From: an uncultured Eubacteriaceae bacterium
GTDB lineage: Bacteria; Bacillota; Clostridia; Eubacteriales; UBA1433
DNA length: 64,000 bases
Assembly (NCBI GenBank): GCA_964533615.1
Contig: CAZHMK010000004.1
Location: 138,398 to 202,397 of the forward strand
Direction of reading: 5' to 3'
The stretch's first letter is position 1; every line of letters begins with the position of its first letter. The position numbers were made by a program, and so were the translations under genes. The notes beneath the pieces are model-generated. The model searched no databases and was not told the origin of the DNA. It worked only from the letters and a program-made list of their open reading frames with translations. Below, one piece after another: positions 10,001 through 57,676 of the stretch.

Positions 10001-10326
10001 AAAATCACCACGCTTTCTTTTGAAACTTTTTTCTCATGATTGTTTCTGCTACCTGACAAAAAAATCATATTTTCATATTGTTTTTCTGTGATTTTAATTA
10101 CTCGTATTTCACCCGAAGATGGCAAAACTTTTTTGAGCTTTGTTATAAAAGAATTATAGTTTACTTCTTTACCTAAAATTTTGGCATAAATAGAATATTG
10201 TATTCGATAGCAACCTAAAGTTAATAGATTTTTTCTGAATTTATTATATTCTTTCACATCAATATTTTCTGTCATTGGCAAGTCATACATTATTAAAATT
10301 CTCACTTTTTTATAATCACTATCCAT
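9997..10326 (-). CDS. cas2: CRISPR-associated endoribonuclease Cas2
   Basis: 109 aa. The N-terminal ILIMYDL beta-strand carries the conserved Asp. Abuts the cas1 stop. Confidence 0.85.
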   Translation of the reverse strand: MDSDYKKVRILIMYDLPMTENIDVKEYNKFRKNLLTLGCYRIQYSIYAKILGKEVNYNSFITKLKKVLPSSGEIRVIKITEKQYENMIFLSGSRNNHEKKVSKESVVIF

Positions 10327-11229
10327 TTAGTATTTTTCCAAAACAGGATAATAAAAATTACGCAGCTTGCCGCTTTCTATACAGGAAAGAACGTCATTGA
10401 CATATACGGCGACTGAATTCAAGATTGAAAATTGTTTACCGCAGATACTGATCTTGTTGTTTAATATGTCTATTAACTCTTTTTTTAATTCTTTATCTAT
10501 TCTGTAATTCTTTCTATCTTTTTTTGTGAGCAGAATATTATAAACGAAGTAATCCACAATGGGTCTGTATATCTCAATCAAATCATCACTTAAATTAAAA
10601 TAATTGTATTCACTTTTGTGATTCAATCCGAGCTGAGTGTTATACCCTCTGCCGATGATTTCTTTTGTTATCAACGTTCGCACAAGATGATAACTGAAAT
10701 TCAAGCATGCGTTGATGATATCTTCTTCAAAGCGCACAAAACTCTCTCCAAACATCTCTTTGAAATATATCCTCGCTATAGTTCCCTCCCTGTTTGTCTT
10801 GTCTCCCAATGTTATGGTAGAAAAAAGATTGATTATTATATCTAATTTATTTATCTTCTTTAATTTTGAAAGAGTATTGATTTGATTTAATATTTTATAT
10901 GATATTATTTTTGTCCAAACTTCTTCTTTAATTTTATCATCCCAGTTGATTTGATTGAGAAGTCTTTTTGAGCTTCTGACATTGTTTTGCAGAGGTTGCA
11001 TTTCTCCTACCGGAAGATGATTATCTCCCATAACAATTACGCATATGCCGGATTTTGCCAGTTCACTTAGCAATCTGCAGGTAATATTGCAAAACATATC
11101 TTCAATAACGATTATACCTATTTCTTCTAAACTAATGTGATATTTTTGCTCCTGATGAATGACTTGTACATGATTGATATTAAGACTTATTTTTTGTGCA
11201 TCTGTAATATAGATTATTCGCCAGCTCAT
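10327..11229 (-). CDS. cas1: CRISPR-associated endonuclease Cas1 (type II)
   Basis: About 300 aa. Motifs NACLNFSYHLV and GLNHKSEYNYFNLSDDLIEIYRPIVD (catalytic His/Asp region). The ATG at 11229 is preferred over the GTG at 11235. Confidence 0.9.
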   Translation of the reverse strand: MSWRIIYITDAQKISLNINHVQVIHQEQKYHISLEEIGIIVIEDMFCNITCRLLSELAKSGICVIVMGDNHLPVGEMQPLQNNVRSSKRLLNQINWDDKIKEEVWTKIISYKILNQINTLSKLKKINKLDIIINLFSTITLGDKTNREGTIARIYFKEMFGESFVRFEEDIINACLNFSYHLVRTLITKEIIGRGYNTQLGLNHKSEYNYFNLSDDLIEIYRPIVDYFVYNILLTKKDRKNYRIDKELKKELIDILNNKISICGKQFSILNSVAVYVNDVLSCIESGKLRNFYYPVLEKY

Positions 11230-11237
11230 TTTCACCG

Positions 11238-11326
11238 TTAAAAGGAAAGAAGCCCTTTCGGGCTTCTTTGGGTTCAGAATTCACGTACAATAATAAGGAA
11301 CTCTGAAAAATCTGATTAATGTAACG
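11238..11326 (-). ncRNA. tracrRNA: tracrRNA (predicted, about 89 nt)
   Basis: Minus strand: CGUUACAUUAAUCAGAUUUUUCAGAGUUCCUUAUUAUUGUACGUGAAUUCUGAACCCAAAGAAGCCCGAAAGGGCUUCUUUCCUUUUAA. The anti-repeat pairs with the crRNA repeat as 23 bp, an internal loop, then 5 bp. It ends in a 10-bp GAAA-tetraloop terminator plus a U tract. Confidence 0.8.
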
Positions 11327-11331
11327 TTTTT

Positions 11332-11360
11332 ATTGTATAAGTAAAAATTTTTCTTGTCAA
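11332..11360 (-). promoter_or_regulatory. tracrRNA promoter
   Basis: Minus strand reads TTGACA (11360-11355), a 17-nt spacer, then TACAAT (11337-11332). The -35 begins 2 nt after the cas9 stop codon. Confidence 0.6.
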
Positions 11361-11362
11361 GT

Positions 11363-14300
11363 TTATTTTGGTACATTTAGATTATACAGCCCTAAAATAT
11401 CCATATTAATTTTTTTTATTTCTATTGTCTTTTTTTGAGTAATGCTAATACAATTTTTAACTATAATTTTTGCATTATTTTTATGAAAATCACCTACAAA
11501 ACCCTCATGCACTGTGGCATCATTATTTACAAATCTGATATATTCATTATTGAATAAATCCATATAAAAATCCAATTCATTTCTATCAACACCAATAAAT
11601 TCATTATATAATGTTTTATAATACTTGCTGTCTTGGAGCACTTTCTTGGTTTTAAAGTCCACGCACACTTTATAAATGGGCATTATATATAATTTCCCTG
11701 TCTCTTTATGCTTAAATACTCTTGAGCAATATTGTTGAAGACTGTCATACATTAAAAAAGTATTTTCCTTTTTATTGATTGATTTCTTTTCAAGCAAAAA
11801 TGGTGTCGTTACTTTTTTTAAATATCTTAACTTTTTGACAATAGGGCTGCTTGTCTTGTCATCCCTCCTTATTCCGTGAATATTATAATTAAATACCTCT
11901 CCTTCCGCTACATTGTTTTCCAGACAGTATGCCACAAATGGATTTATACCGCCAGATGAATATTTTTCTAAGATATCATGCAACTTGTTATATAGATGCG
12001 GATCGTTTTTCTTGCATAAGAGTTCTTTGGTGTTATCATGAAACACTTTTTTTATATTATCTATTGTTTTTTTTATTTCATTATTATCCGCAGAATTATT
12101 TTCCGATGATGTGTTTACATAAATATTTGGAATTTCACTAATTTTATAATATTGATTGTCTTTTTTGTTTTTGATAACTTTTTGTACATTTGCATCATAC
12201 AACTTACCTTGCGGATTTTTTTTAACCTCCATAGAACATCTAGTATTTTCAAATGAAGCTTCTTTTAGCGAATCTCTGATTTTACTCGGCAGATTAAGCA
12301 TATCGAAAAGCTGATCCCTGTTTTCGCTTACTATATTACTCAGCCAGTATTTGTCGGGATTATTTTGTATTAATGCCATCAATCGGCCAATCGGAAGCAA
12401 GATTATGGAAGCAATAACCCCTGCATCAACGGCATGATGGAAGCCTTTATCCCTATCCTTTTCAACACCATTTCTATTTCTGATAATTGCGGTTAATTTA
12501 CCAGGTATTTTAATTATTTTTAAATCTAATTGTTCTTCATTGTTATTTTCATAAGCTTTTAAAAACAACTTTAATTGATTGGCTAATTCGTTTGTGGCAT
12601 AAGCTGTATCGTTTAGATTTCTGTTTTTAAATCTTTTTTCATATTTTATTAATTCACCGGTAAATAAGAGATAGCCTTTTTTAGCGTTGCTAATATTTTT
12701 ATTTGCTTTGATTCGTTTTTCAAATTCTTCGTATTGATTAATTGAAGTAAGGTAAGCAAGCGGTGTTCTCTGCCCTTTATTATGATTGCAATCATAGCAT
12801 GATATAGTTTTATTCGAAAATGAATCATCACCTGTGATGCTTTTTGGCAAGATATGCTCTATTTCACAATTGTTTAAACTAATGGGGGCATTGCAATATG
12901 CGCATTTAAAATCCATTTCTTTTAATAATAAATACTTATTGATATTGTTATCCGTACAATCATATCCTAAATCAACAAGTTTTTTTCTTGCTTCTTCTCT
13001 GGTTCTGAAATTTTCTAATGTCGCTTTTTCATATTCCTTTTTTTGGTCATTTGATAGTATGTTTGTAGTTGCTTCAATGCAAATATACGCGGGATAACCG
13101 TATTTTCTGAAAAGCTTATTGAGCACGGTTATTGCCTTGCGCAAAGATTTTTTTGTTTGAGGCGATGCTACTAAATCGTCAATAAAATTAGTGGATATAT
13201 ACTTTAATTCACCTGCTTCAATGTTCTGATTTATATAATGTTCAATTTTATATTGTTCTGTGTCAGCATTTATTTCATGCGGGTAAGTTCTTTCAATATA
13301 AGATGAATTTTTGTTATACTGTTTCATTAATGAAAGATATTTCTTTATTGCTTTCTCTGAAAAATTTTGATATTTATTTTCAATCTTTGATTTTATTTCT
13401 TTGGTTTTTAGAATATTTAATAATTCATAGCTTAAATGCGGAAGTTTGGTTTCAAGCATATCAAATCTTGTATTCTCATCAGGTGAAATATTAATAATCT
13501 CAATAGCTGTATTATATACATCAATATTTTCTGTTAATTCCTCGAATAACTGCTCATTATTTATAACTTTTTTTATGCTCCGGTATGTTTTAAAAGTTGA
13601 TATAGATTCAGACCCAACAGTTTTTTCACCAATGATTACATTTACTTTGAATTTTTTTCTTATCAGCGGTTTTATTTGTTTTACTGAGTTTAAAATCTCC
13701 TCTTTTAATTCTTCTATTGCAAAAGTTTTTAATTTATAGGTAGTGTTATCAATTTTTTCAAAATAACTTAGATTTTCATTGTTCATTTCATCAACAGAAA
13801 ATTTTAGGTTTGTTAAGTCATTATAAAAATTAAAGTATTCGGCATAAAAATTACTGCTGTTAACTTTCTTTTCTCCGATATAAATCTTACAGTTGCCTAC
13901 AAGATTTTCATATAAATATTTATTATAATTATTATCAAGTTCATACTTTTCAATATCTTCTTTTACTTTATATCTTCCATACTTTGTAAGTGCGTTTAAA
14001 CGCGGAGCACCTGGTCCTTCCCAAAATTGTCTTTTAGAATCTAATATTTGTATAACATCATTTAAAAAATTGTCAGTTAAAACTTGTGGATAATATCTTT
14101 TTTGATTTCCAAATAAAGTTTTCAATTCCTGTATATAGTCCTTATGCGTTATTGTGTATGCTGCTCCTCTATACTGACCATATGTATTCAGCAACTCCTT
14201 TTGTATTTCGCACGGCATATATCCTTTATCTCTTAGCTCTGTCACAAATTCATTTACTCTTTCCTCATCTCCAAAGGGTATATACCCTCTGTGACGCGCA

Positions 14301-14647
14301 AAATATATAATGATATTGATAATATCCTGCATCTCTAATTTTTCGCCACTTTTTATTGCTCGTATTCTCTTTTCCAATAACTTAGAATCAATTGTGTTTT
14401 CATAATAAATATTATTTGCTTGAAATAATTTATACAGCCTTTCAATGCGATGATTTTTTCTTTTTATCCGTCTTCTGATATTGCGGAAATTTCTTCTATC
14501 CACTGCCTTTTCTGCTTGAGAAAAAAAACTGACTCCGCGATCAATAACTTCTTTTTTCGCTAAATCAATTACGCTCCATCCAATATCTGCAACACCCAAA
14601 TCAATGCCAATGGATATATTTTCATTCTTATTTATTTTTTCTGCCAT
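11363..14647 (-). CDS. cas9: CRISPR-associated endonuclease Cas9, compact type II-A ortholog
   Basis: 1094 aa. RuvC-I IGIDLGVADIGWSV, Arg-rich bridge helix RRNFRNIRRRIKRKNHRIERL, RuvC-II YICIEATT, HNH EIEHILPKS...CNHNKGQRTP, RuvC-III GFHHAVDAGV. All catalytic residues are present. Confidence 0.95.
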   Translation of the reverse strand: MAEKINKNENISIGIDLGVADIGWSVIDLAKKEVIDRGVSFFSQAEKAVDRRNFRNIRRRIKRKNHRIERLYKLFQANNIYYENTIDSKLLEKRIRAIKSGEKLEMQDIINIIIYFARHRGYIPFGDEERVNEFVTELRDKGYMPCEIQKELLNTYGQYRGAAYTITHKDYIQELKTLFGNQKRYYPQVLTDNFLNDVIQILDSKRQFWEGPGAPRLNALTKYGRYKVKEDIEKYELDNNYNKYLYENLVGNCKIYIGEKKVNSSNFYAEYFNFYNDLTNLKFSVDEMNNENLSYFEKIDNTTYKLKTFAIEELKEEILNSVKQIKPLIRKKFKVNVIIGEKTVGSESISTFKTYRSIKKVINNEQLFEELTENIDVYNTAIEIINISPDENTRFDMLETKLPHLSYELLNILKTKEIKSKIENKYQNFSEKAIKKYLSLMKQYNKNSSYIERTYPHEINADTEQYKIEHYINQNIEAGELKYISTNFIDDLVASPQTKKSLRKAITVLNKLFRKYGYPAYICIEATTNILSNDQKKEYEKATLENFRTREEARKKLVDLGYDCTDNNINKYLLLKEMDFKCAYCNAPISLNNCEIEHILPKSITGDDSFSNKTISCYDCNHNKGQRTPLAYLTSINQYEEFEKRIKANKNISNAKKGYLLFTGELIKYEKRFKNRNLNDTAYATNELANQLKLFLKAYENNNEEQLDLKIIKIPGKLTAIIRNRNGVEKDRDKGFHHAVDAGVIASIILLPIGRLMALIQNNPDKYWLSNIVSENRDQLFDMLNLPSKIRDSLKEASFENTRCSMEVKKNPQGKLYDANVQKVIKNKKDNQYYKISEIPNIYVNTSSENNSADNNEIKKTIDNIKKVFHDNTKELLCKKNDPHLYNKLHDILEKYSSGGINPFVAYCLENNVAEGEVFNYNIHGIRRDDKTSSPIVKKLRYLKKVTTPFLLEKKSINKKENTFLMYDSLQQYCSRVFKHKETGKLYIMPIYKVCVDFKTKKVLQDSKYYKTLYNEFIGVDRNELDFYMDLFNNEYIRFVNNDATVHEGFVGDFHKNNAKIIVKNCISITQKKTIEIKKINMDILGLYNLNVPK

Positions 14648-42575: not shown

Positions 42576-43643
42576 TTATTCTATTACTTTAATCCAGCCT
42601 CTTGTATCTTCCTTTTTACCATATTGCAGGTTTGTGATTTCATCATATAGCTTCTGTGAAATTTCACCGATAACTTGATTGTTTATAACAACTTCTTTGT
42701 CTTTCCATTTCAACAATCCTACAGGAGAAATAACCGCTGCCGTACCCGTTGCAAATGCTTCGCTCACTTTTCCTTCTTCAGCAGCCTTAAATATTTCATC
42801 TACTGTGATATCTCTCTCTTCTACCGGAATCCCCCACTCTTTGGCCAGTTGGATGACGGTAGATCTTGTAATCCCTGGAAGGATCGTCCCTCTCGTTAGA
42901 GGCGGCGTTATAATTTTACCGTCTATGACAAACATAATATTGCTTGTTCCAACTTCTTCGATATATTTACCTTCTTTAGCATCCAGCCAGCATATTTGTG
43001 AAAATCCCTTTTGAATCACTTCTTCGCCCGGCTTTAGTGTTCCTGCATAGTTCGCTCCGGCTTTATAATGCCCAATGCCGCCTTGTGCAGCACGTATGTA
43101 TTTATCTTCAATATATATTTTTGTAGGTTTCATTCCCTCAGGATAATAGGCCCCTACAGGAGAAAGAATTATAAAATATAGATATTTGTCGGAACGTTTT
43201 ACGCCGAGATGTGTTCCGGTCGCAATACAGAATGGTCGGATATAAAGCGCCATTCCATCTTTTGGCGGAATCCAATCTTTATCTATTTTAATAAGCTCTT
43301 CGATTGCATTCAGCATTTCATCCACATCAAAAGTCGGCATTGCCAAACGATCATGCGTGCTGTTCATACGTTCCATATTTTTTTCGGGTCTGAATAATCT
43401 TATTTTTCCGTCAGCTCCGTAAAAAGCTTTCATGCCTTCAAAGCTTTCCTGCGCATAATGAAAAACCAAAGCGGCGGGATCAATTAAAAATTGTGCATAT
43501 TCTTCGATTCTTGCATTATGCCAGCCAATTTTATCGTCATATTCAACGATAAACATATTGTCTGAATAATAATTACAAAATCCGCATTCATCCCACGACG
43601 GTTTTTCTTTTTTTGTTTTTGATTGGTTAAATTTGATGTTCAT
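42576..43643 (-). CDS. ilvE: Branched-chain amino acid aminotransferase
   Basis: About 355 aa from MNIKFNQSK (GGAAGGG RBS). Class IV aminotransferase pattern (FEGMKAFYG.DGKIRLFRP, GGIGHYKAGANYA). Confidence 0.9.
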   Translation of the reverse strand: MNIKFNQSKTKKEKPSWDECGFCNYYSDNMFIVEYDDKIGWHNARIEEYAQFLIDPAALVFHYAQESFEGMKAFYGADGKIRLFRPEKNMERMNSTHDRLAMPTFDVDEMLNAIEELIKIDKDWIPPKDGMALYIRPFCIATGTHLGVKRSDKYLYFIILSPVGAYYPEGMKPTKIYIEDKYIRAAQGGIGHYKAGANYAGTLKPGEEVIQKGFSQICWLDAKEGKYIEEVGTSNIMFVIDGKIITPPLTRGTILPGITRSTVIQLAKEWGIPVEERDITVDEIFKAAEEGKVSEAFATGTAAVISPVGLLKWKDKEVVINNQVIGEISQKLYDEITNLQYGKKEDTRGWIKVIE

Positions 43644-43682
43644 AATAGTTTTCCCTTCCAGTTTATAGATAATTTTCCTCGT

Positions 43683-43710
43683 ATTATAACATAGAATAAA
43701 AAATATGCAA
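43683..43710 (-). promoter_or_regulatory. Putative ilvE promoter
   Basis: Minus strand TTGCAT-N16-TATAAT with an extended -10 TG. Confidence 0.45.
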
Positions 43711-43762
43711 GTAAAATTTTTAAATATTCTGATTTTTTTCATTATTTTAGTATATTCAAATA

Positions 43763-43797
43763 AAAACTGTATGTGCAAGTATAACACATACAGTTTT
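43763..43797 (-). terminator. Intrinsic terminator after glnA
   Basis: AAAACTGTATGTG-(9 nt)-CACATACAGTTTT, a 13-bp stem, about 60 nt after the glnA stop. Confidence 0.65.
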
Positions 43798-48072: not shown

Positions 48073-48894
48073 TTATTCGTCAATAACTATAAAATGATGC
48101 TTGATTGTCTGTTTTTCTATAGGAGGTAATTTTGTATAATCTCCATAGACACGTCTTAAAAGATAATCATATTGTCTGGGAGCGGGAAACATATGCCCTT
48201 CAAACTCCACTTCAACAGGCTGCCCGTATACTTCATTGGGCACTGTTTGATTAAACATATTATGATAACTTGCCAGAGTAACTGTGTATTGATTATTTTT
48301 TCTGTCATTATATAGCTTAAAATTTTTATCCAGCAGCTTGTGTATTGTATTGATTGAAAGAAACTTTGATGACGCAGTAACTAATTTCCTCTTCACATTG
48401 TTTGGTTTGCGAAGAACCAATTTATAAGTAAGCATTGCTCTTAAAAAATTTATTTTCATCCCCTGCCATAATTGTCCAAGACTTTTTTGTTTTGGAACGG
48501 ATTCCATTGGGAAAATATCAATATAAGGCCCATTATTTTGTGTTAAATGCGCTATGTGTTTTTGTTTAAATTTTTGTTTACCAAGCAATCTTACTTTAAT
48601 AAACGGCGACCAATAACTATATACTGTACTGGGATGCTGTATTTCATAGTTCAGTCCCATTTCTTCCGGTGCAATTTTTAAAAATTTTTCATATTCATCC
48701 CGCTTCATTAAAATATCCAAATCATCGTCCCAAGGAATAAATCCTTTATGCCTAATTGCACCGAGCAGAGAACCTTCTCCGAGATAATAAGTAATGCCAT
48801 GTTTTTTACATATTTTATCTACCTGCAATAAGATATCTAATTCTATAGCCTGCAGCTCTCTTATTTGTTCTATAGTCAATTTTGAATTCTCCAA
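48073..48894 (-). CDS. licD: LicD-family phospho(no)-alcohol transferase
   Basis: 273 aa. YYLGEGSLLGAIRHKGFIPWDDDLDILM is the LicD signature. Confidence 0.8.
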   Translation of the reverse strand: MENSKLTIEQIRELQAIELDILLQVDKICKKHGITYYLGEGSLLGAIRHKGFIPWDDDLDILMKRDEYEKFLKIAPEEMGLNYEIQHPSTVYSYWSPFIKVRLLGKQKFKQKHIAHLTQNNGPYIDIFPMESVPKQKSLGQLWQGMKINFLRAMLTYKLVLRKPNNVKRKLVTASSKFLSINTIHKLLDKNFKLYNDRKNNQYTVTLASYHNMFNQTVPNEVYGQPVEVEFEGHMFPAPRQYDYLLRRVYGDYTKLPPIEKQTIKHHFIVIDE

Positions 48895-49072: not shown

Positions 49073-50953
49073 TTATTTACCTGATAATTTTGTTATATAA
49101 ATAAAACTATGCCTTGATTTTCTCTTTTCAAGAGGTGGAAATGTTAAGTAATCACCGTAAATAATGCCCAAAACCAAATCATATTCCTGCGGCACAGGCA
49201 ACATCAATCCTTCAAAAGATATATATTGTGCCTTGCTAAATGCCTGAGCGGGAAAAGTTTGTTTTTTTAGTTGATAAGAGCTGCAGTAATTTGCTACATA
49301 ATCACAGCCAGATTTATCATTATAATATGTTGAAAGCGCTTCTATTTTTTTATGCAAAACTTCATAAGAACAAAAATAAGATTTTATTTTTGTAAAGAAT
49401 TTTTCTTTGGTCACTTTCATAGGATAACCTGTTTTAAAAAGAAGCATATCTCTGTATTTTCTTATTTTTTTTCTTCTTCTATTCTGCTCTTCTCCATATT
49501 CAACAGCTTTATCCAAAGGAAAAATATCAATATATACTCCATTGTATTCTTTTAAAGAAAAACTCTCATTATTAATAAAACCGGTATTTTCCAGTATGAC
49601 TATTTTTGAAAACGGCAAATGATATTCTTTGATTGTATGTCGATTGCATAATTTGCACCCATTGATTATTTGAGTATTAAACAACTTGATAAATTTATTA
49701 TAATCATCTCTTGGCATAATAATATCGACATCATCATCCCATGGTATAAACCCGTTATGACGGATCGCACCCAACAGCGTCCCTTCCGCTAAATAATAAG
49801 TAATATTGTTTTCTATGCAAAAAGCATCCACGATTTTTAGAATCTCCAATTCAATTAATTGCAATTTTTTAAATTGTTCAGGTGAAAAGTTTGCTTTGAT
49901 GAGCTTCTTTTTTTTACGCCAGAAAATCTTCATCAGCGCTCGGCGAAAACACATAGGTATAATAAAATACATTTTGAGTTTTGTCTTGTGCATTTTTGCT
50001 TTCGTAAACTTTTTTTGCGTTCTTTTTTTTATTAAATTTTTATATGAATATTGATAATATCTATTTTTTCTCCAATTAGGAAAATGATTGTCTAAATACT
50101 CATATGCACTATCAAAAAACTGATTCTGAAATTTTCTGTCAGTCGAATTTTTAAGTGTATTAATTCTTGCAAATATATGCATTCTGCATATATTTTCTAA
50201 AACTTCATAAGCGACGTCAAAAACTCCTTTTGATTTATAAAAATCAATTATGCTGTCACATGATTTAAAGATATCAAAAAGTCCCATATTCATGCTGTTC
50301 GTAATAGAATCTGTTCTGTCTGTTCTATAATTGCATAAAGCTTTATCTACCAGCTCAATTTTATTGGCCATTAAAAGTATATTATAGACAATAGCCGAAT
50401 CTTCAAAAACTTGTCCAACGGGAAAATATAAGTCATTATCAATAAATAATTTCCTTCTATACAGTTTATTAAATGCATAAGATTTGCACGCAAATAACAC
50501 TTCTGGATTTTCCTCAACGCTGCCGCCGAAGGCTCTTAAATAATGCAGAGGCATGATCTTTGTTTTATCTTCTTTGAGCTGATTAATGTAACAAACAACA
50601 ACATCGCAGTCTTGATCCACTGCTTTTGAATACATTTCTTCCAGCATATTTGTTTCAACATAATCATCAGAATCAACAAAGCCTATATATTCTCCTTGCG
50701 CCCTTTTTATCCCATAATTACGCGCATCACTGAGCCCACCGTTTTCTTTAGTATACGATTTTATTTTATTGGGATATTTTCGCATATATTCGTCAATAAT
50801 TAATTGCGAATTATCTGGAGAGCCGTCATTAATGACAAGTATTTCAATGTCCTTAAGGCTTTGATGAACTAAGCTGTCTAAGCACTGAGGTAAATATTTT
50901 TCCACATTATAAACTGGTACGACAACAGATACTTTTATATTATTTTTTTTCAT
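49073..50953 (-). CDS. Family-2 glycosyltransferase fused to a LicD domain
   Basis: 626 aa. N-terminal GT2 (VSVVVPVYNVEKYLPQCLDSL, DSDD). C-terminal LicD (YYLAEGTLLGAIRHNGFIPWDDDVDIIM). A basic/hydrophobic linker joins the two. Confidence 0.8.
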   Translation of the reverse strand: MKKNNIKVSVVVPVYNVEKYLPQCLDSLVHQSLKDIEILVINDGSPDNSQLIIDEYMRKYPNKIKSYTKENGGLSDARNYGIKRAQGEYIGFVDSDDYVETNMLEEMYSKAVDQDCDVVVCYINQLKEDKTKIMPLHYLRAFGGSVEENPEVLFACKSYAFNKLYRRKLFIDNDLYFPVGQVFEDSAIVYNILLMANKIELVDKALCNYRTDRTDSITNSMNMGLFDIFKSCDSIIDFYKSKGVFDVAYEVLENICRMHIFARINTLKNSTDRKFQNQFFDSAYEYLDNHFPNWRKNRYYQYSYKNLIKKRTQKKFTKAKMHKTKLKMYFIIPMCFRRALMKIFWRKKKKLIKANFSPEQFKKLQLIELEILKIVDAFCIENNITYYLAEGTLLGAIRHNGFIPWDDDVDIIMPRDDYNKFIKLFNTQIINGCKLCNRHTIKEYHLPFSKIVILENTGFINNESFSLKEYNGVYIDIFPLDKAVEYGEEQNRRRKKIRKYRDMLLFKTGYPMKVTKEKFFTKIKSYFCSYEVLHKKIEALSTYYNDKSGCDYVANYCSSYQLKKQTFPAQAFSKAQYISFEGLMLPVPQEYDLVLGIIYGDYLTFPPLEKRKSRHSFIYITKLSGK

Positions 50954-50963
50954 ATATTTCCCT

Positions 50964-51818
50964 TTACTTATCAGTTAAGTCTTGTTTTATTGAAAAATGG
51001 TGTTTCATTATTCTTTCTGACTCATCAGGTAACAACATATACTCTCCGTAAATAGCCGTAAGCAAACATTCCGTTTTGGCAGGTATTGGAAATTCACATC
51101 CTTCAAAAACATGCATTCTGCCTTTATCATAAACAGATTTATGCACTGTCTGATTAGCAGGCGGATAATAGCTTCCATAGCTTACCATATATTCATTATT
51201 TTTTTTATGATTATATTTTGTCATAATTTTTTTTATTTTTTTATGTATAAATTTAACAGTTATTATTTTACTGAATAAAAATAATGCAATATTAAATTTA
51301 TTTTTAAAATTCATAGAATATCGTGTTTTAAAAAACAATGTTCTACGTAACGCTTTTATTTTATATCCCTGCCACAGTTGTATGAAACTGCTTCGTTTAG
51401 GAACATAATCCAATGGGAAAATGTCTATGTAAGGACCGTAATATCTAGATAATTTTTTTACTTTAGACTGCTCATATCTAGTTTGCCGTGTTAATTTTAC
51501 TTTTGCACCGATTACCCAATAGTTTGGATTTGTTTCCATGCAGTCCAAAAAATACCCTTTAGGAAGCAATATTGGAGCCAGACTTATAAATTCCTCATAA
51601 TCATCTCTCGGCATCAAAATATCGACATCATCATCCCATGGTATAAAACCGTCATGTCGAATCGCTCCAAGTAAAGTTCCTTCTCCCAAATAATAATTGA
51701 TATTGTTTTGTTTACAAAATTCATCAACCACAAGCAAAATCTCTAATCCATATGCCTGCAGTTCTTCGATTTGATCATATGTATTATCTTGTTTATATAC
51801 TGCTTCCATTTCTCTCAC
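50964..51818 (-). CDS. licD: LicD-family phospho(no)-alcohol transferase
   Basis: 284 aa. YYLGEGTLLGAIRHDGFIPWDDDVDILM. Confidence 0.8.
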   Translation of the reverse strand: MREMEAVYKQDNTYDQIEELQAYGLEILLVVDEFCKQNNINYYLGEGTLLGAIRHDGFIPWDDDVDILMPRDDYEEFISLAPILLPKGYFLDCMETNPNYWVIGAKVKLTRQTRYEQSKVKKLSRYYGPYIDIFPLDYVPKRSSFIQLWQGYKIKALRRTLFFKTRYSMNFKNKFNIALFLFSKIITVKFIHKKIKKIMTKYNHKKNNEYMVSYGSYYPPANQTVHKSVYDKGRMHVFEGCEFPIPAKTECLLTAIYGEYMLLPDESERIMKHHFSIKQDLTDK

Positions 51819-51820
51819 TT

Positions 51821-53653
51821 CTAATCAGCCAAAATATGTTTGTAAATATCTTCAATAATATTTTTATCAAGCATAACAGGATTATTTTTTAACCTTACAG
51901 GATTAACAGAATTCACTAACTCTATTAATTCGTCTTTATTTTTTAATTTGGGACTTGGCAAATTTAATTTTTTGTATAATTGTATGAATTTACCGATACA
52001 TTCATTTGAATTCATTGCATAAAACATATCATTCAGCTCTGCAAATATATTTTTTAAATAATCTCTGCCTCTTTTATCTGTACATTTATCCAAATTACGG
52101 ACCATATACATCCATATATGTGGCAAACTTAAGCTCACTGCATGTCCATGGGAGATATTGTACAGTGAAGAGAGCTTATAACTCATTGCGTGAGCTGCCG
52201 TGGTCTGTGCAATATTGATTGCTTTTCCGCTTAAAAACGAAGCTCTTTGCATATTTTTTAATGCATCTAAATCATTTAGAAGTGCTTTATCAATATTTTT
52301 GAGTATAAACTGTATACTTTCTTTTGAATACTGCCTGCTTATTTTAGTTGAATTTACCGACCAAAAAGCTTCAATCGCCTGGCAAAGTGCGTCCAGCATT
52401 GTTGATTTTTTCTGATAATCCGGCAATTTGGTAAGCAGCCTCGGATCTAAAATAACATATTCTGGAATAATGCTGTCATGGCTGATAGATTGTTTTTCGC
52501 CTTCATAATACAAAACAGAAAATCTTGTGCATTCACTGCCTGTCCCGGCTGTTGTGGGCACCGCTAAATGCTTTATCGGACAAAATTTATATGCTTGTTT
52601 TAAATAATTTCGGCTGTTGTCAAGACATGAAAATAATTTGATATTTTTGGCCGTATCAATAGCGCTCCCTCCTCCAATTGACACAATAAAATCACACTGA
52701 TTTTTATTGAATAATTCAACCCCTTTCGCAACATCCTCATAAACCGGATTAGAAGAAAAATCACTAAAACGAATGATTTCTACTTTCAGTGAAGCAATAT
52801 AATCTTTTAAATACTGTTTATCATAACTTCTTCCGCAGACAAGCATTATTTTTCTTGCATTATTTTCTCTTAAAATAGTTTCTATTTGTAAATAATCGTC
52901 TTCTCCCTCAAATATCATCTGTGCATCGAAATCATATTGCCTGATTTCTTCACTGACTCGTTTTAAATCTTGCGGCGTGTCAATTTCATCTATATAATAA
53001 TTTTCATAATCAAATGCTTCGATATTTAAAGAAGGCAAAATTTCGTTCAATGCATTTTCAGCATAAACTTGATTCATTCCGCTCGCTATAAACCCACTAA
53101 TTCGACCGAGCCATTTTATGATATATTCTTTGCTTAATTTATAAAAAGGCTGAAATGCATAGCAATCTGCATCAAAGATTTCTATACCTATTTTTTGAAT
53201 TTTGTTATCTTTAAGCTTTGCTTTAAAATCTTTTTGAGGCAAAACTTTCTCTTTATTGACCGCCGCTATATTCTCTCTGCTGTCTTTAAGCATATCCTCG
53301 ACTAATTTCTTGGTAAAAACCAAGTCCCCATGCATGAGCAATATATCATCATTTAAATACTGTTCCGTTAAATACATTGAATATATATAATTGGTTTTAT
53401 CATAAAACGGATTATGTATAAAGGTAAAAGATACTTGGTTATCTCTGTTCATTTGATTCGCCGCGGCTTCAATCTTTTCTCGATACGGGCCTGTTGTAAT
53501 AACAAATTCCTTAATGCCGCATTCCATCAAAATACGAAGCTGTCTTAAAAAAACAGCTTCTCCGTTTGATAATTGCACCATTGCCTTATGATTATTTTTT
53601 GTTAGCTCACCCATTCTTTTCCCTATTCCGGAATTCAATATAACAGCTTTCAT
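51821..53653 (-). CDS. Nucleotidyltransferase (LicC/MobA-like) fused to an iron-containing alcohol dehydrogenase (candidate phosphonoacetaldehyde reductase)
   Basis: 610 aa. N-terminal KAVILNSGIGKRMG NTP-transferase loop. C-terminal Fe-ADH motif GGGSAIDTAKNIK with His-rich metal-site region. 2-nt gap from ppd. Confidence 0.75.
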   Translation of the reverse strand: MKAVILNSGIGKRMGELTKNNHKAMVQLSNGEAVFLRQLRILMECGIKEFVITTGPYREKIEAAANQMNRDNQVSFTFIHNPFYDKTNYIYSMYLTEQYLNDDILLMHGDLVFTKKLVEDMLKDSRENIAAVNKEKVLPQKDFKAKLKDNKIQKIGIEIFDADCYAFQPFYKLSKEYIIKWLGRISGFIASGMNQVYAENALNEILPSLNIEAFDYENYYIDEIDTPQDLKRVSEEIRQYDFDAQMIFEGEDDYLQIETILRENNARKIMLVCGRSYDKQYLKDYIASLKVEIIRFSDFSSNPVYEDVAKGVELFNKNQCDFIVSIGGGSAIDTAKNIKLFSCLDNSRNYLKQAYKFCPIKHLAVPTTAGTGSECTRFSVLYYEGEKQSISHDSIIPEYVILDPRLLTKLPDYQKKSTMLDALCQAIEAFWSVNSTKISRQYSKESIQFILKNIDKALLNDLDALKNMQRASFLSGKAINIAQTTAAHAMSYKLSSLYNISHGHAVSLSLPHIWMYMVRNLDKCTDKRGRDYLKNIFAELNDMFYAMNSNECIGKFIQLYKKLNLPSPKLKNKDELIELVNSVNPVRLKNNPVMLDKNIIEDIYKHILAD

Positions 53654-53655
53654 TT

Positions 53656-54765
53656 TTATTTACTTAGTTTCTCCATCATAGCAATTTTATTTTCTTGAGG
53701 TGTTGTCGTCGGGCGACCTAAATCACTTCTTGAACCTTGCTTGGTATAAATAATCAATGCGCTTTTCTGCTTTGTTTTAAGCATCCTCATCGCATCTTTT
53801 ATTTCATCTTTTTCAGTCGCTTTATAAACATTTGTAAACCCAAACCCTTTTAATATGGTTTGTATATCTATGTCAAAAGCTACTGTCGGTTGCCCTCCTA
53901 CGGATTCATGTGCTCCATTGTTGATTAATATATATTTGAAATTATTTTGTGCATTTTGTGCTATGACACCAAATCCGCCGGCATGCATTAGAAATGACCC
54001 ATCTCCGTCAATGCAGTAAATATTTTTATCTGTGCCAAGAGTCATACCAAAAGCAATAGATGCTGTATGCCCCATGGATCCGACAGTCAAAAAATCATTC
54101 GCGTGCCCCTGCCCACCAGCTTCCCTTAATTCAAATATTTCTCTGGATGTTTTTCCTGTTGTCGACACAATAAACTCCTCGTCATCAAGCATTTTTAAAA
54201 TAATCTTTAATGCTTCTTCTCGTGTCAGAGTATATCGGCTTATTTTTTTTGATACCTTATAATCTGAAAATAATCCTTTGCGCACAATAAGCGCTATCGG
54301 CTTATTATATTTTTTCATATATTCATAGCAATAATCTATTTGATTTTTATAATTATCCTCTAAAATAATGTATTCAATGCCCATTGTATCTAATAAAGAA
54401 AGGGTCACTTTACCTTGCTTTTTATGCTGCGGTTCATCTTTTATGCCGGGTTCTCCTCTCCATCCGATAAGCAGAAGCATCGGAATTTTATAAACATCTT
54501 CATCAGCAAGCGAAAGCAGTGGGTTTACAGTGTTTCCCTGCCCTGAATTTTGCATATAAACAACACCGTATTTACCTGTTGCGATATGATATCCGCATGC
54601 CATGGCCACGGCATTTCCCTCGTTTGCTGTAATAATATTCTTTTTAGTACAACAATTTTCTTTTATGCATGCACAAATATTTTTAAGAAGAGAGTCGGGC
54701 ACTCCCATATACATATCCAATTGCTTGGTTTGCAAGTAATCATAAAATCCTTTTGTTTCAATCAT
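53656..54765 (-). CDS. ppd: Phosphonopyruvate decarboxylase (TPP-dependent)
   Basis: About 369 aa from MIETKGF (GGAGG RBS inside the pepM 3' end). MGVPDSLLK N-terminal motif and GDGS TPP motif (CIDGDGSFLMH). Confidence 0.85.
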   Translation of the reverse strand: MIETKGFYDYLQTKQLDMYMGVPDSLLKNICACIKENCCTKKNIITANEGNAVAMACGYHIATGKYGVVYMQNSGQGNTVNPLLSLADEDVYKIPMLLLIGWRGEPGIKDEPQHKKQGKVTLSLLDTMGIEYIILEDNYKNQIDYCYEYMKKYNKPIALIVRKGLFSDYKVSKKISRYTLTREEALKIILKMLDDEEFIVSTTGKTSREIFELREAGGQGHANDFLTVGSMGHTASIAFGMTLGTDKNIYCIDGDGSFLMHAGGFGVIAQNAQNNFKYILINNGAHESVGGQPTVAFDIDIQTILKGFGFTNVYKATEKDEIKDAMRMLKTKQKSALIIYTKQGSRSDLGRPTTTPQENKIAMMEKLSK

Positions 54766-54767
54766 TC

Positions 54768-56081
54768 TTATTTGCCTCCGGGAATCAATGTCAATATTTC
54801 GTTTATAGGCATACACAGTTCGTCTACCTCTTTACTTCGTCCGCATTGCAAAATCATTTTTGCTGTTTTTTCCATCGCCGGATACGCACTTCGAAGCAGA
54901 TGGTTGGCATGAATGATAATATTGGCTCCGGCTGCGTGTAATGCTTCCTCTGTGATGTAATTATATGATGTAGGAATGACAATAATAGGTATATCTGTTG
55001 AATATTCCCTGAATTTTGCTAAAAATTCCATGACTTCTTTTCCATCTTTTTCTTTACTGTGAATCGTAATGCCGTCAGCACCTGCTTCTATATATATCTT
55101 TGCTCTTGATAATGCTTCGTCAACACCGTAACCCGCAATCAAGCTTTCTATTCTTGCAAATATCATAAAGTCTCTGGTAACCTGTGCTTGCTTGCCTGCC
55201 AATATTTTTTTTGCGAATAAATGCGGGTCATCCATTGTCTGCTCAACATCGGTACCAAAAAGCGAATTTTTTTTCAATCCTGTTTTGTCTTCGATAATTA
55301 TTGCGGAAACACCGAGTCGTTCAAGGGTTTTTACATTGTATACAAAATGTTCGATCTTCCCTCCCGTATCTCCGTCAAGAATGATTGGCTTTGTGGTCAC
55401 TTCCATTATTTCATTGATTGTGTTGATCCTGCTTGTTAAGTCTACCAGCTCAATATCTGGTTTCCCCTTAAAAGTAGAGTCGCACAGGCTACTGATCCAC
55501 ATGGCGTCAAATTCTTTCATTGTTGCTGTTACAGGATTTTCAACTCTGAGATTTTCTACAATAAGCCCTGTCAAGCCATTAGATGCTTCCATTACAGTAA
55601 TATAAGGCTTTAACGACAGTAAACGTTTAAGTTTTGCGCGTCGATTATCGGGCGTGTTATTTAAAAGCCGGAATTGTTGTTCTAAATCTGTAGCAGAAAT
55701 TCCTTTTGTATAGGGCACTTCGATTAATTTACCGTTCCACTGTGAAAGAATAGCGATCACATTTTCCCTGACAAGCGATTGAATGCCTTTTTTCCAGTCA
55801 TCTCCATGCAAAACGAAGTCAGGTTTAAATTTTAATAAATTTTCTGTATAATCCAGACTTGTTTGCGGAACTACCTGAGAAACATTCTTTATATTTTTAA
55901 ATATTTTTTCTCTTGCCTCGTAATCTAACAGAGGAAGCCTTTTATATGCTGCTATCGCTTCATCTGTCATTAATCCGATAATTATTTCTCCGTATTTTGA
56001 TCCTTCTTCAATTACATTTATATGTCCGCTATGAATGATATCAGCGGACACGGCTATATATACTTTTTTCTTATCTTGCAT
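54768..56081 (-). CDS. pepM: Cytidylyltransferase (TagD-like) fused to phosphoenolpyruvate mutase
   Basis: 437 aa. N-terminal SADIIHSGH...HGDDW (HxGH cytidylyltransferase fold). C-terminal PepM domain with the diagnostic EDK-X5-NS motif (EDKTGLKKNS). Confidence 0.9.
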   Translation of the reverse strand: MQDKKKVYIAVSADIIHSGHINVIEEGSKYGEIIIGLMTDEAIAAYKRLPLLDYEAREKIFKNIKNVSQVVPQTSLDYTENLLKFKPDFVLHGDDWKKGIQSLVRENVIAILSQWNGKLIEVPYTKGISATDLEQQFRLLNNTPDNRRAKLKRLLSLKPYITVMEASNGLTGLIVENLRVENPVTATMKEFDAMWISSLCDSTFKGKPDIELVDLTSRINTINEIMEVTTKPIILDGDTGGKIEHFVYNVKTLERLGVSAIIIEDKTGLKKNSLFGTDVEQTMDDPHLFAKKILAGKQAQVTRDFMIFARIESLIAGYGVDEALSRAKIYIEAGADGITIHSKEKDGKEVMEFLAKFREYSTDIPIIVIPTSYNYITEEALHAAGANIIIHANHLLRSAYPAMEKTAKMILQCGRSKEVDELCMPINEILTLIPGGK

Positions 56082-56163: not shown

Positions 56164-56191
56164 ATTATAATACTTGCTTAACATTTGTCAA
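56164..56191 (-). promoter_or_regulatory. Putative promoter of the phosphonate operon
   Basis: Minus strand TTGACA-N16-TATAAT, about 75 nt upstream of the pepM ATG and just downstream of the LCP-gene terminator. Confidence 0.5.
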
Positions 56192-56251: not shown

Positions 56252-57676
56252 TTAGGGTGTAGTTGATGTGTCATCCTCCTCTGGTGTATCATCTGAAGGA
56301 GTATCATCTGCAGGGGTATCATCTGCGGGGGTATCGTCACTTGTAGAAGTATCATCCGTCGAAGTATCATCTTCAATGATAATATCTTCTTCATCAGTTG
56401 TATCTTCTGTATCATTATTCGTTGTAGTTCTTCTATTATCTATTCTCAGCTCTTCTTGCGTCCACTGAGATGCAGAAATACCAAAAACATCTTTAATCAA
56501 AGAAACTCTTTTAGACTGATTGATAATCCACATAGAAATACCATCTCTTGATCCATAAAAACCCGGAAATGTGTGTGTGTTTATATTATCAACATCCAAG
56601 TCTTTTACATTGGCGGCTAAAGATACCACTTGCTCAAAAGTAAAGTTCGTATAAATATCCTCTTTCAAAGACTGATAAATTGTAGGAATCGACATTAATT
56701 TATTAGATTCTTTGAATTGTTCAAACAACGCTTTCAATAATTTTTGCTGCATGGCAACTCTTTCTATATCACTGCCTGCATTTTTTCTGTCTCTTGCTAG
56801 GAAAAGAAAATTTTTGCCATTCAGAACTTGATTGCCTTTTTCTAATTTTAGTTTACCGTCTTTATACAGATTATATGGAATATCAAATTCAACCCCGCCC
56901 ATGCTGTTGACAACATCAACTACGGTATCCATATCAACACCCACATAAAAATCGATGGGCACCCCGCCAAGCAAAGCGCTGACTGTTTGCTCAAGACACT
57001 CTAATCCATTTTCAAAATCAGTGTCTTTATCACCATAAATGGCTCCATAATACATACATGCATTTATTTTGGTCCTCCCTCTGTTCCCATAGAGAGGCAC
57101 ATAAGTATCCCTGGGAATAGAAATTAAATCAACTTCTTCCGTTTCCAAATTGATACTTGCCAAAACAATCGTATCCGGCCTGTAAATACTTCCATATTTC
57201 CCGCTTTCTTCTCTGCCTTCACTTCTGTCAATACCAAAAATCAATATATTAATTGTGTTGCCGTCAAAATTCTCGGCTACATTTAATCCCTTATATACAT
57301 TGACTTTATTTAAAAATTTATCTTTCTCTCTTACCAATGAATTCGAGCCACTGTTTGCAAGCTTATTGACATACCCGAAGCCTACCACGCCTGCAATGCC
57401 CAGCAATACGATAATAGATATAAGCACCTTGAACCATCTTCTTTGAATGATGCTTTTTTTCTTATACGTATCAAATTCATCATCTGATACTTCATATTCA
57501 ACTTCCGGCATTTCCTCCACAGGTCGTATGTCCGATTGATTGTTTTTCTCCTCACTGTCAGAAATATCAGCTTGCACGTTCATTAATTGAGCATCGTCAT
57601 CACTGATCGATTGGTCATTTTCATTATTTATATCATCATTTTCATTTTCGTAATTTTTGTTATTATCGCTATCCAT
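56252..57676 (-). CDS. LytR-CpsA-Psr (LCP) family glycopolymer ligase with acidic N- and C-terminal tails
   Basis: 474 aa. Single TM helix (WFKVLISIIVLLGIAGVVGF), then the LCP core (INILIFGIDRSEGRE...DTIVLASIN...ISIPRDTYV). Confidence 0.85.
   Translation of the reverse strand: MDSDNNKNYENENDDINNENDQSISDDDAQLMNVQADISDSEEKNNQSDIRPVEEMPEVEYEVSDDEFDTYKKKSIIQRRWFKVLISIIVLLGIAGVVGFGYVNKLANSGSNSLVREKDKFLNKVNVYKGLNVAENFDGNTINILIFGIDRSEGREESGKYGSIYRPDTIVLASINLETEEVDLISIPRDTYVPLYGNRGRTKINACMYYGAIYGDKDTDFENGLECLEQTVSALLGGVPIDFYVGVDMDTVVDVVNSMGGVEFDIPYNLYKDGKLKLEKGNQVLNGKNFLFLARDRKNAGSDIERVAMQQKLLKALFEQFKESNKLMSIPTIYQSLKEDIYTNFTFEQVVSLAANVKDLDVDNINTHTFPGFYGSRDGISMWIINQSKRVSLIKDVFGISASQWTQEELRIDNRRTTTNNDTEDTTDEEDIIIEDDTSTDDTSTSDDTPADDTPADDTPSDDTPEEDDTSTTP
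56283..56342 (-). repeat. 15-bp tandem repeat x4 inside the LCP gene 3' end
   Basis: GG(T/A/G)GTATC(A/G)TC(T/A)... units at 56283, 56298, 56313 and 56328. They encode DDTP(A/S/E) pentapeptide repeats. Confidence 0.7.

Follow-up and report, generated by a model that had tools for sequence, protein, structure and literature searches.

A nucleotidyltransferase-alcohol dehydrogenase fusion that probably serves wall decoration with hydroxyethylphosphonate in an uncultured sludge bacterium

The gene at positions 51821-53653 (minus strand) of the stretch of DNA analysed here, a 64,000-nucleotide window from contig CAZHMK010000004.1 of an uncultured Eubacteriaceae bacterium, encodes a nucleotidyltransferase (NT) domain fused to an iron-containing alcohol dehydrogenase (Fe-ADH, or simply ADH). 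The operon around this putative two-domain reductase/cytidylyltransferase makes it reasonably likely that the host runs a surface-phosphonate (phosphonyl-tailoring) pathway via 2-hydroxyethylphosphonate (HEP) in place of 2-aminoethylphosphonate (AEP). In other words, the bacterium, represented by a metagenome-assembled genome (MAG) from sludge (2.35 Mb, 100% complete), probably decorates its cell wall with hydroxyethylphosphonate and not with the usual aminoethylphosphonate. To our knowledge, work on cell-surface phosphonates has dealt almost exclusively with AEP conjugates, and Tde1415 of Treponema denticola is the one activating fusion to have been characterized; the NT-ADH fusion appears to be new as its HEP counterpart, no published description having been found.

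Tde1415 joins the cytidylyltransferase PntC to an AEP transaminase (AEPT) and makes CMP-AEP (Rice et al. 2019, PMC6697681; PDB 6pd1 and 6pd2). The logic of phosphonyl tailoring set out in that work comprises a phosphoenolpyruvate (PEP) mutase (Ppm), a phosphonopyruvate decarboxylase (Ppd), conversion of the resulting phosphonoacetaldehyde (PnAA), cytidylyl activation and transfer by LicD. The window fusion resembles Tde1415 in that an N-terminal, LicC-like PF12804 cytidylyltransferase is joined to an enzyme expected to turn PnAA into the final phosphonate, and in being encoded near a nucleotidyltransferase-fused Ppm, a Ppd and wall-glycan genes. The two differ in the second domain, which is a class-V aminotransferase (leading to AEP) in Tde1415 and an Fe-ADH (predicted to lead to HEP) here, in a pocket residue discussed below (Glu104 versus His108), and in the low similarity of their NT domains.

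The fusion protein and its operon

The open reading frame (ORF) is intact, starts with ATG and encodes 610 amino acids, of which residues 1-242 (52928-53653, minus strand) form the LicC/PntC-like NT domain and residues 243-610 (51821-52927, minus strand) the ADH domain, a probable PnAA reductase. Pfam places NTP_transf_3 (PF12804; E 7.7e-10) and NTP_transferase (PF00483; E 2.2e-8) on residues 1-133, Fe-ADH (PF00465; E 3.7e-38) on residues 246-404 and ADH_Fe_C (PF25137; E 6.2e-26) on residues 417-607. These matches bear out the preliminary description of this DNA, which had recognized a LicC/MobA-like NT fused to a group-III Fe-ADH after ppd; both of the motifs it quoted are present, KAVILNSGIGKRMG as residues 2-15 in the NT domain and GGGSAIDTAKNIK as residues 327-339 in the ADH domain, the latter opening with the dinucleotide-binding GGGS (residues 327-330). 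The identical 610-amino-acid protein is found on 24 contigs from sludge metagenomes, and all of the 120 best database matches are full-length relatives (48-78% identical), so the fusion is no artefact of chance or assembly. The sequencing runs listed as containing this DNA are sludge metagenomes throughout, possibly its source, with no RNA run among them. Both domains are annotated in all but 2 of these 120 matches, and the names given to the relatives in the database say only "iron-containing alcohol dehydrogenase."

The fusion is the third gene of a minus-strand operon that reads, in order, a Fom1-like cytidylyltransferase (CyTase) joined to Ppm, Ppd, NT-ADH, LicD, a family 2 glycosyltransferase (GT2) joined to LicD, and a third LicD. 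The intergenic gaps from CyTase-Ppm to GT2-LicD measure 2, 2, 2 and 10 bp, and 178 bp then precede the last gene. In the pathway proposed here, Ppm would convert PEP to phosphonopyruvate, Ppd would turn this into PnAA, and the C-terminal ADH domain, with its Zn/Fe site and NAD(P)H, would reduce PnAA to HEP. The N-terminal domain would combine HEP with cytidine triphosphate (CTP), the presumed nucleotide, to yield CMP-HEP and pyrophosphate, with the Fom1-like CyTase on Ppm probably acting on HEP too. Finally, the three LicDs, one of them GT2-fused, would use CMP-HEP to attach hydroxyethylphosphonyl to the sugars of the presumed acceptor, a wall glycopolymer, and a LytR-CpsA-Psr (LCP) enzyme would anchor the decorated glycopolymer to peptidoglycan.

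The reductase domain and the choice of head group

The choice between HEP and AEP turns on the enzyme that acts on PnAA. The preliminary description had remarked that the cluster holds no pyridoxal phosphate-dependent aminotransferase that could serve as AEPT, and this holds well beyond the cluster: no aminotransferase lies within the operon, and a genome-wide search for an AEPT that might act in the pathway returned, for the two curated PhnW/AEPT models, best scores of only 38.9 bits with TIGR03301 (cut-off 360.8) and 33.3 bits with TIGR02326 (cut-off 400.8). Likewise, a bona fide AEPT, taken as tblastn query from an AEPT-CyTase-Ppm-Ppd cluster of the same class, found no match in the window and none at E <= 1e-8 in 79 of 80 related loci, which came from a search across prokaryotes with each species represented by a single genome. 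The sole match among the 80 was a 25%-identical class-V aminotransferase in a locus (L034) that has a stand-alone NT and no ADH, and no locus of this set was of both the ADH and the AEPT type. No phosphonatase is present, so a catabolic HEP route is not the setting of the ADH.

It might still be argued that AEP is the head group after all, made by an unrecognised aminotransferase encoded elsewhere, with the ADH having an incidental activity or disposing of the reactive aldehyde. The genome does encode generic class-V relatives, and a class-IV aminotransferase of 403 amino acids lies about 8 kb from the operon (42576-43787, minus strand). The latter was rejected as a hidden AEPT, being of a different fold type and a neighbour of glnA, and both PhnW models stay below one-ninth of their cut-offs throughout the genome. 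Together with the mutual exclusion of the two types of locus and an NT that lacks the amine-binding Glu, this renders the survival of AEP as head group highly improbable.

The identity of the ADH itself follows from context and phylogeny, since none of the curated NCBIfam models was reached by this domain, with ErcA, lactaldehyde reductase and TIGR03405 all scoring about 141-150 bits. When the window proteins were searched against the 80 loci with tblastn, ADH relatives of at least about 37% identity almost always stood beside CyTase-Ppm and Ppd. In a tree of 74 ADH domains (IQ-TREE), the window ADH falls in a clade of 39 rows (ultrafast bootstrap 100, SH-aLRT 99), of which 31 have Ppm/Ppd in the same locus, as against 0 of the 26 rows in the generic Fe-ADH clade. 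Gene fusions within the clade tell a similar story: Ppd is fused to ADH in one locus (L031:827-3037), ADH to LicD in two (L011:9953-11947 and L015:9992-11911), CyTase to ADH in another (L039:9635-11218), and NT, ADH and LicD form a single polypeptide in L009 and in database proteins of 875-1005 amino acids (P0005, P0027, P0036 and others). These fusions connect the ADH both with the producer of PnAA and with the transferases that consume the activated phosphonate. Three archaeal loci (L050, L052 and L055) were considered as ADH-NT fusions in reversed order and rejected, the genes being separate and either adjacent or overlapping.

An alternative raised in the preliminary description, namely that the Fe-ADH is a polyol-phosphate dehydrogenase of the glycerol-1-phosphate/AraM/GldA type and that a CDP-alditol for a polymer resembling teichoic acid is the product of the fusion, fared poorly and is now scarcely credible. 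LicD-family enzymes can use CDP-alditols, examples being fukutin/FKRP and some teichoic acid enzymes. In addition, the ADH of one clade member (L040:5099-7564) is fused with TagF-like (Glyphos_transf) and MptE-like domains, and the window ADH has a weak match to Fe-ADH_2 (PF13685; 40 bits). However, PF00465 scores 131 bits on the same domain, the glycerol-1-phosphate dehydrogenase model NF002022 (cut-off 413) yields 29.3 bits, and NF006941, for glycerol dehydrogenase (cut-off 336), yields 52.7 bits. The clade is tied to Ppm/Ppd by its neighbourhoods and by the Ppd-ADH fusion, and its pocket residues match those of PhpC.

The PhpC comparison draws on a recent study of HEP dehydrogenases (PMC13576164, 2026), in which HEP binding is predicted for Lys157, Thr256, Tyr264 and Arg349, and Asp191, His195, His260 and His274 serve as metal ligands (P. 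fungorum numbering); Tyr264 shows strict conservation among PhpC proteins, sulfoacetaldehyde reductases having Phe there. The numbering was carried over through L082, a true TIGR03405 protein (521 bits) whose offset to PhpC is a constant +3, rising to +4 at the C-terminus. Residues K387, D421, Q425 and T484 of the fusion align with K160, D194, H198 and T259 of L082, and H488, Y492, H502 and R587 with H263, Y267, H277 and R353. The predicted HEP-binding positions of PhpC are accordingly filled by K387, T484, Y492 and R587, and the metal ligands, by alignment, are D421, Q425, H488 and H502. T484 and R587 are kept in 36-37 of 37 rows, K387 and Y492 in nearly all members of the clade, and W431 and N590 are likewise conserved throughout this Ppm-linked clade. 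The position of the first metal-binding His (195 in PhpC) is occupied by Gln425 in the window protein and by Q or H among clade members. Generic Fe-ADHs in the same alignment have mostly His, Leu/Val and no Arg at the corresponding pocket positions.

The nearest solved structure to the ADH domain (6jko/6jkp; E 2.4e-37, the best single-sequence PDB match) is the sulfoacetaldehyde reductase TauF of Bifidobacterium kashiwanohense, a Zn enzyme whose metal site is Asp192/Gln196/His261/His275 (PMC13576164). TauF thus shares the Asp/Gln/His/His site with the window ADH, and the sulfonate that it reduces is an isostere of PnAA; TauF differs in having Phe where the window ADH and PhpC have Tyr (Y492), and in belonging to taurine metabolism, apart from any Ppm or Ppd. 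The reductases of the PhpC/FomC/DhpG/AglG type (EC 1.1.1.309), including the degradative PhpC of Paraburkholderia fungorum (PMC13576164), have PF00465 in common with the window ADH, along with the predicted HEP-binding residues, the metal ligands save for the Gln in place of the first His and, in the biosynthetic members, a Ppm-Ppd context. Unlike the window ADH, which lies below the TIGR03405 cut-off in a clade of its own and is fused to a nucleotidyltransferase, each of the known PhpC enzymes is a separate protein of some 350-390 amino acids. Taken as a whole, the domain is most likely a PhpC-type PnAA reductase in function that lies outside the TIGR03405 equivalog.

Neighbourhoods of the PhpC-type HEP kind make up 8.5% of ppm neighbourhoods (PMC8942020). 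HEP as a glycan-bound head group has precedents in the exopolysaccharide or phosphonoglycans of Stackebrandtia nassauensis and Glycomyces, according to work cited in PMC8942020; there, clusters of the Ppm-Ppd-PhpC type are responsible, and the hosts are Actinomycetes.

A further group of Fe-ADHs in the tree, from Oscillospiraceae and apart from any Ppm (L053, L057, L058, L060 and L063; genes near position 10001 of their loci), keeps a Trp/Thr/Tyr-or-Phe signature and has Leu at the position of Arg587. These enzymes may be TauF-like sulfoacetaldehyde reductases.

The nucleotidyltransferase pocket and a second cytidylyltransferase

A profile of the NT family (28 NT domains) finds as its best solved relatives LicC (1jyk; E 2e-20) and the PntC domain of Tde1415 (6pd1; E 7e-15), the match to 6pd1 spanning residues 2-236. 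The NT domain of the fusion has the motifs G9-x-G11-K-R13, H108-G-D110, K141-D-F-K144, E199 and E223-x-D225. Its nucleotide loop (G9, G11 and R13) does not vary within the family, nor do its acidic metal ligands, of which D110 corresponds to D106 of Tde1415, and E223 and D225 to E216 and D218 of LicC. LicC of Streptococcus pneumoniae, a CTP:phosphocholine cytidylyltransferase (1jyk/1jyl), follows the same plan, in which cytidylyl activation comes first and LicD then passes the head group to a glycopolymer of the wall. It differs in having an N-E-W-F stretch where the window protein has K-D-F-K, a phosphonate substrate is expected here, and the window genome is without the choline kinase and choline transporter, neither of which was found in a genome search. 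The LicDs are thereby left without an evident source of CDP-choline.

In the crystal structure of Tde1415 PntC, the amine of AEP is contacted by Glu104 and Glu196 (PMC6697681). The latter corresponds to E199 of the window protein and the former to His108, which is invariant in all 28 NTs, both ADH-context and stand-alone. In all four NTs that lie next to an AEPT, from four AEPT-type clusters of the same class, the His108 position holds Glu (E-G/A-D). The difference extends to other motifs, in that AEPT-linked NTs have NNISS (three of four) and D-D-W or D-E-C, and ADH-linked NTs have TNYIYS and K-D-F-K. A provisional finding that AEPT-type clusters lack a LicC-like NT was withdrawn; tblastn had missed three of the four, and a hidden Markov model search found one beside each AEPT. 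The pattern, in a small sample, is the one expected of a pocket that once took a cationic amine and has been adapted to a neutral hydroxyl, and it supports HEP activation by the fused NT. A context-linked Glu/His switch in the NT pocket appears to be new.

The NT is encoded two genes downstream of Ppm, and this NT is present in 27 of 30 Ppm-bearing related loci. On balance, it seems somewhat probable that the fused NT activates HEP. The preliminary description had gone further, proposing that the fusion makes the nucleoside monophosphate-HEP donor; as a role for the NT this remains plausible in view of the His108 switch, but it cannot be called exclusive, given the Fom1-like CyTase on Ppm. Its broader proposal of a HEP rather than an AEP branch stands up well, as an AEPT was not found and the Ppm/Ppd-linked ADH clade, the fusions, the PhpC-type residues and the Glu-to-His switch all point the same way.

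The CyTase domain of the Ppm protein (55647-56081, minus strand; PF01467, CTP_transf_like) is N-terminal and carries an HSGH motif (HxGH) at residue 17. It matches the CyTase structure of Fom1 from Streptomyces wedmorensis (5x3d) at E 7.6e-49 and 168.5 bits, with an identity of about 55% as counted by eye from the printed alignment. In Fom1, this domain has been shown to form CMP-HEP from HEP and CTP (Cho 2017, as cited in PMC6697681). Fom1 has the same CyTase-Ppm architecture as the operon's Ppm, and CMP-HEP is the donor proposed here; the difference is that Fom1 belongs to an antibiotic pathway in which methylation and then hydrolysis of CMP-HEP follow, whereas here CMP-HEP would presumably be consumed by LicDs. 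That the CyTase on Ppm acts on HEP is likely, and it does not exclude action of the NT on the same compound.

A serious rival follows, in which the Fom1-like CyTase supplies CMP-HEP to the LicDs and the fused NT has another role; the NT might act on a second head group, on an imported phosphate or phosphonate, or with another nucleotide, or might serve in scaffolding or regulation. Besides the likeness to Fom1 itself, ADH-context CyTases are nearer to Fom1 (168.5 and 135.9 bits) than an AEPT-context CyTase (94.6 bits). NT and CyTase occur together in 25 of the 30 Ppm-bearing ADH-type loci and also in AEPT-type clusters, which argues against simple redundancy. Moreover, stand-alone NTs pair with a transporter of the major facilitator superfamily (MFS), so this NT subfamily can use an imported substrate. 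On the other hand, the PF12804 domain that is fused to the PnAA-converting enzyme in T. denticola activates the final phosphonate (PMC6697681), and the Glu-to-His switch tracks the ADH context, which suggests that the NT reads the difference between HEP and AEP. The NT-ADH-LicD triple fusions place the NT physically between the formation of HEP and its transfer, and NT-MFS loci have no CyTase match in six of seven cases, so the NT can activate alone. We regard a LicD supply by the CyTase, with the NT otherwise engaged, as unlikely, although not negligibly so. Each cytidylyltransferase has a biochemical precedent on the final phosphonate and each varies with the type of pathway, so either of them, or both, may feed the LicDs.

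Two main layouts recur among the related loci, [CyTase-Ppm][Ppd][NT-ADH], as in the window, and [NT-CyTase-Ppm][ADH][Ppd]; one locus (L029:10001-11110) has an NT-CyTase without Ppm. The cultured Yeguia hominis NSJ-40 (L007) has an orthologue of the fusion in an operon arranged as in the window. The conserved module consists of NT, CyTase, Ppm, Ppd, ADH and often LicD, and nothing further. This composition bears on the suggestion that HEP is an intermediate only, and that enzymes encoded outside the operon modify it to a final head group such as methyl-, hydroxymethyl- or hydroxypropyl-phosphonate, or to an ester at the hydroxyl of HEP. In the making of fosfomycin, the methyltransferase Fom3 acts on cytidylylated HEP. 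More generally, HEP is a branch point to fosfomycin, phosphinothricin, dehydrophos and methylphosphonate (PMC8942020, PMC13576164). In the window, however, NT-ADH leads straight into the three LicD genes, and no gene for an oxygenase, radical-SAM enzyme or methyltransferase occurs from the promoter-like site ahead of the operon to the convergent ABC-F gene. A further modification of HEP is therefore considered very unlikely.

Several points weigh against the assignment of the fusion to HEP. The ADH scores 141.2 bits on TIGR03405 (Phn_Fe-ADH/PsrA), the only phosphonate Fe-ADH model, for which the cut-off is 423.7, and in the tree its lineage is separate from the TIGR03405-type L082 and from L067. 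These two, the one TIGR03405-positive and the other Ppm-adjacent, are stand-ins in a tree that is without the characterized Streptomyces PhpC, FomC and DhpG. The HEP-binding residues of PhpC derive from a published AlphaFold3 model and not from a crystal complex. Eight members of the clade are without Ppm/Ppd in the fetched locus; of five such exceptions rechecked, three have a Ppm elsewhere in the genome and two are MAGs without any Ppm. The Glu/His comparison rests on four AEPT-context sequences and Tde1415. Finally, the operon has its second cytidylyltransferase on Ppm, and the fused NT may be redundant or have another substrate.

A joint reading of the two activating enzymes, offered as a speculative and rather doubtful one, would make the ADH-linked NTs a HEP-specific branch of PntC, with His108 and K-D-F-K replacing the amine/cation-binding Glu and D-D-W, non-redundant with the Fom1-like CyTase. 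The LicDs would, in the same scheme, also extend HEP on HEP into short phosphonate-ester chains, a teichoic-acid-like "phosphono" polymer. Such extension is conceivable because HEP, unlike AEP or choline, keeps a free hydroxyl.

If the HEP assignment is correct, a neutral, hydroxyl-bearing, phosphatase-resistant head group would be present on the walls of many anaerobes. Surface charge and recognition by phages or the immune system would be affected, as would the pool of HEP in the environment, for which dedicated catabolic routes have been described only recently (PMC13576164). The Glu/His switch would then provide a simple sequence marker to predict the AEP or HEP specificity of PntC enzymes, and it would become more pressing to ask why two unrelated cytidylyltransferases occur in these clusters.

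Seven stand-alone NT genes, 52-56% identical to the window NT domain, each adjoin one conserved MFS transporter (L030:10001-12045, L032:8686-10784, L034:10001-12053, L035, L036, L037:8651-10744 and L054). Their hosts are Oscillospiraceae/Acutalibacteraceae MAGs, and the two NTs that were aligned (L034 and L037) have the His108/K-D-F-K signature of the window protein. None of the five genomes checked, which are MAGs of unknown completeness, has a PEP mutase, and six of the seven loci are without a CyTase match at E <= 1e-8, so that the NT subfamily can be the sole activating enzyme. The NT-MFS pair resembles a salvage module and may import a ready-made phosphate or phosphonate (HEP or similar) and cytidylylate it; in a related reading, such modules in Ppm-less Oscillospiraceae would salvage HEP released by producers like the window organism. 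Beside the pair in L034 lie a fusion of CTP_transf_like with a GFO/IDH/MocA oxidoreductase, the class-V aminotransferase noted above (25% identical to AEPT) and two LicDs, with no Ppm (L034:12101-16264). These neighbours could form a pathway to a CDP-activated amino-alcohol head group.

Operon features, distribution and neighbouring genes

The PEP mutase domain of the first gene (54768-55646, minus strand) scores 380.8 bits on TIGR02320 (cut-off 319.55) and has EDKTGLKKNS (EDKxxxxxNS) at residue 264 of the Ppm protein. Ppd (53656-54765, minus strand) scores 440.8 bits on TIGR03297 (cut-off 312.5) and has 369 amino acids from the ATG chosen by gene callers, the longest ORF beginning at a GTG at 54816. 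Two base pairs after the fusion gene comes the first LicD-family transferase (50964-51818, minus strand; PF04991, E 3.2e-46), followed by the GT2 glycosyltransferase fused to the second LicD (49073-50953, minus strand; PF00535, E 6.9e-37; PF04991, E 8.7e-47) and, after the longer gap, by the third (48073-48894, minus strand; PF04991, E 3.8e-46). According to a genome search, these three are the only LicD domains of the genome.

The LCP gene (56252-57676, minus strand; PF03816, E 1.1e-32; TIGR00350 above its cut-off), for a glycopolymer-to-peptidoglycan ligase, lies just upstream of the operon, which suggests that the acceptor is a wall-anchored glycopolymer. The 170-bp gap that separates it from the phosphonate operon contains a promoter-like site (56164-56191, minus strand; TTGACA, a 16-nucleotide spacer and TATAAT), which matches at 12 of 12 positions in what was a consensus scan only. 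Such a perfect site suggests that the phosphonate operon and the LCP gene have separate transcripts.

The fusion is patchily distributed, a search having found it in one of five congeneric genomes and in none of a further 35 relatives, and the G+C content around it is lowered (30-34%). Both features would fit a mobile surface-decoration island. Across species-representative genomes, the module, fused or rearranged, is found in Clostridia, Bacilli, Erysipelotrichaceae, Bacteroidota and Actinomycetota, and several archaeal lineages from gut, rumen and sludge have its domains as separate or differently fused genes. One Lachnospiraceae MAG (G005, which holds L086 and L088 as well as L046) has both AEPT-type and ADH-type Ppm clusters, together with an additional NT-ADH pair distant from any Ppm; one organism may thus make both AEP and HEP decorations.

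Elsewhere in the window, type II CRISPR-Cas genes (10327-14647, minus strand) encode Cas9 (11363-14647; 1094 amino acids, with HNH and WED domains) and Cas1 (10327-11235) and are located in the stretch of lowest G+C (28-29%). On contig 2 of the same genome (G000:C2:146350-199357), the genome's other small nucleotidyltransferase genes are grouped, which encode PF12804 proteins of 236, 395 and 457 amino acids, along with a TagD-like PF01467 protein of 141 amino acids (C2:167473-167835); the PF12804 search of the host's own genome missed the window's NT domain and so gives no count of NT paralogues. The nucleotidyltransferases of contig 2 may belong to a separate teichoic-acid or CDP-alcohol locus, which could supply the acceptor polymer.

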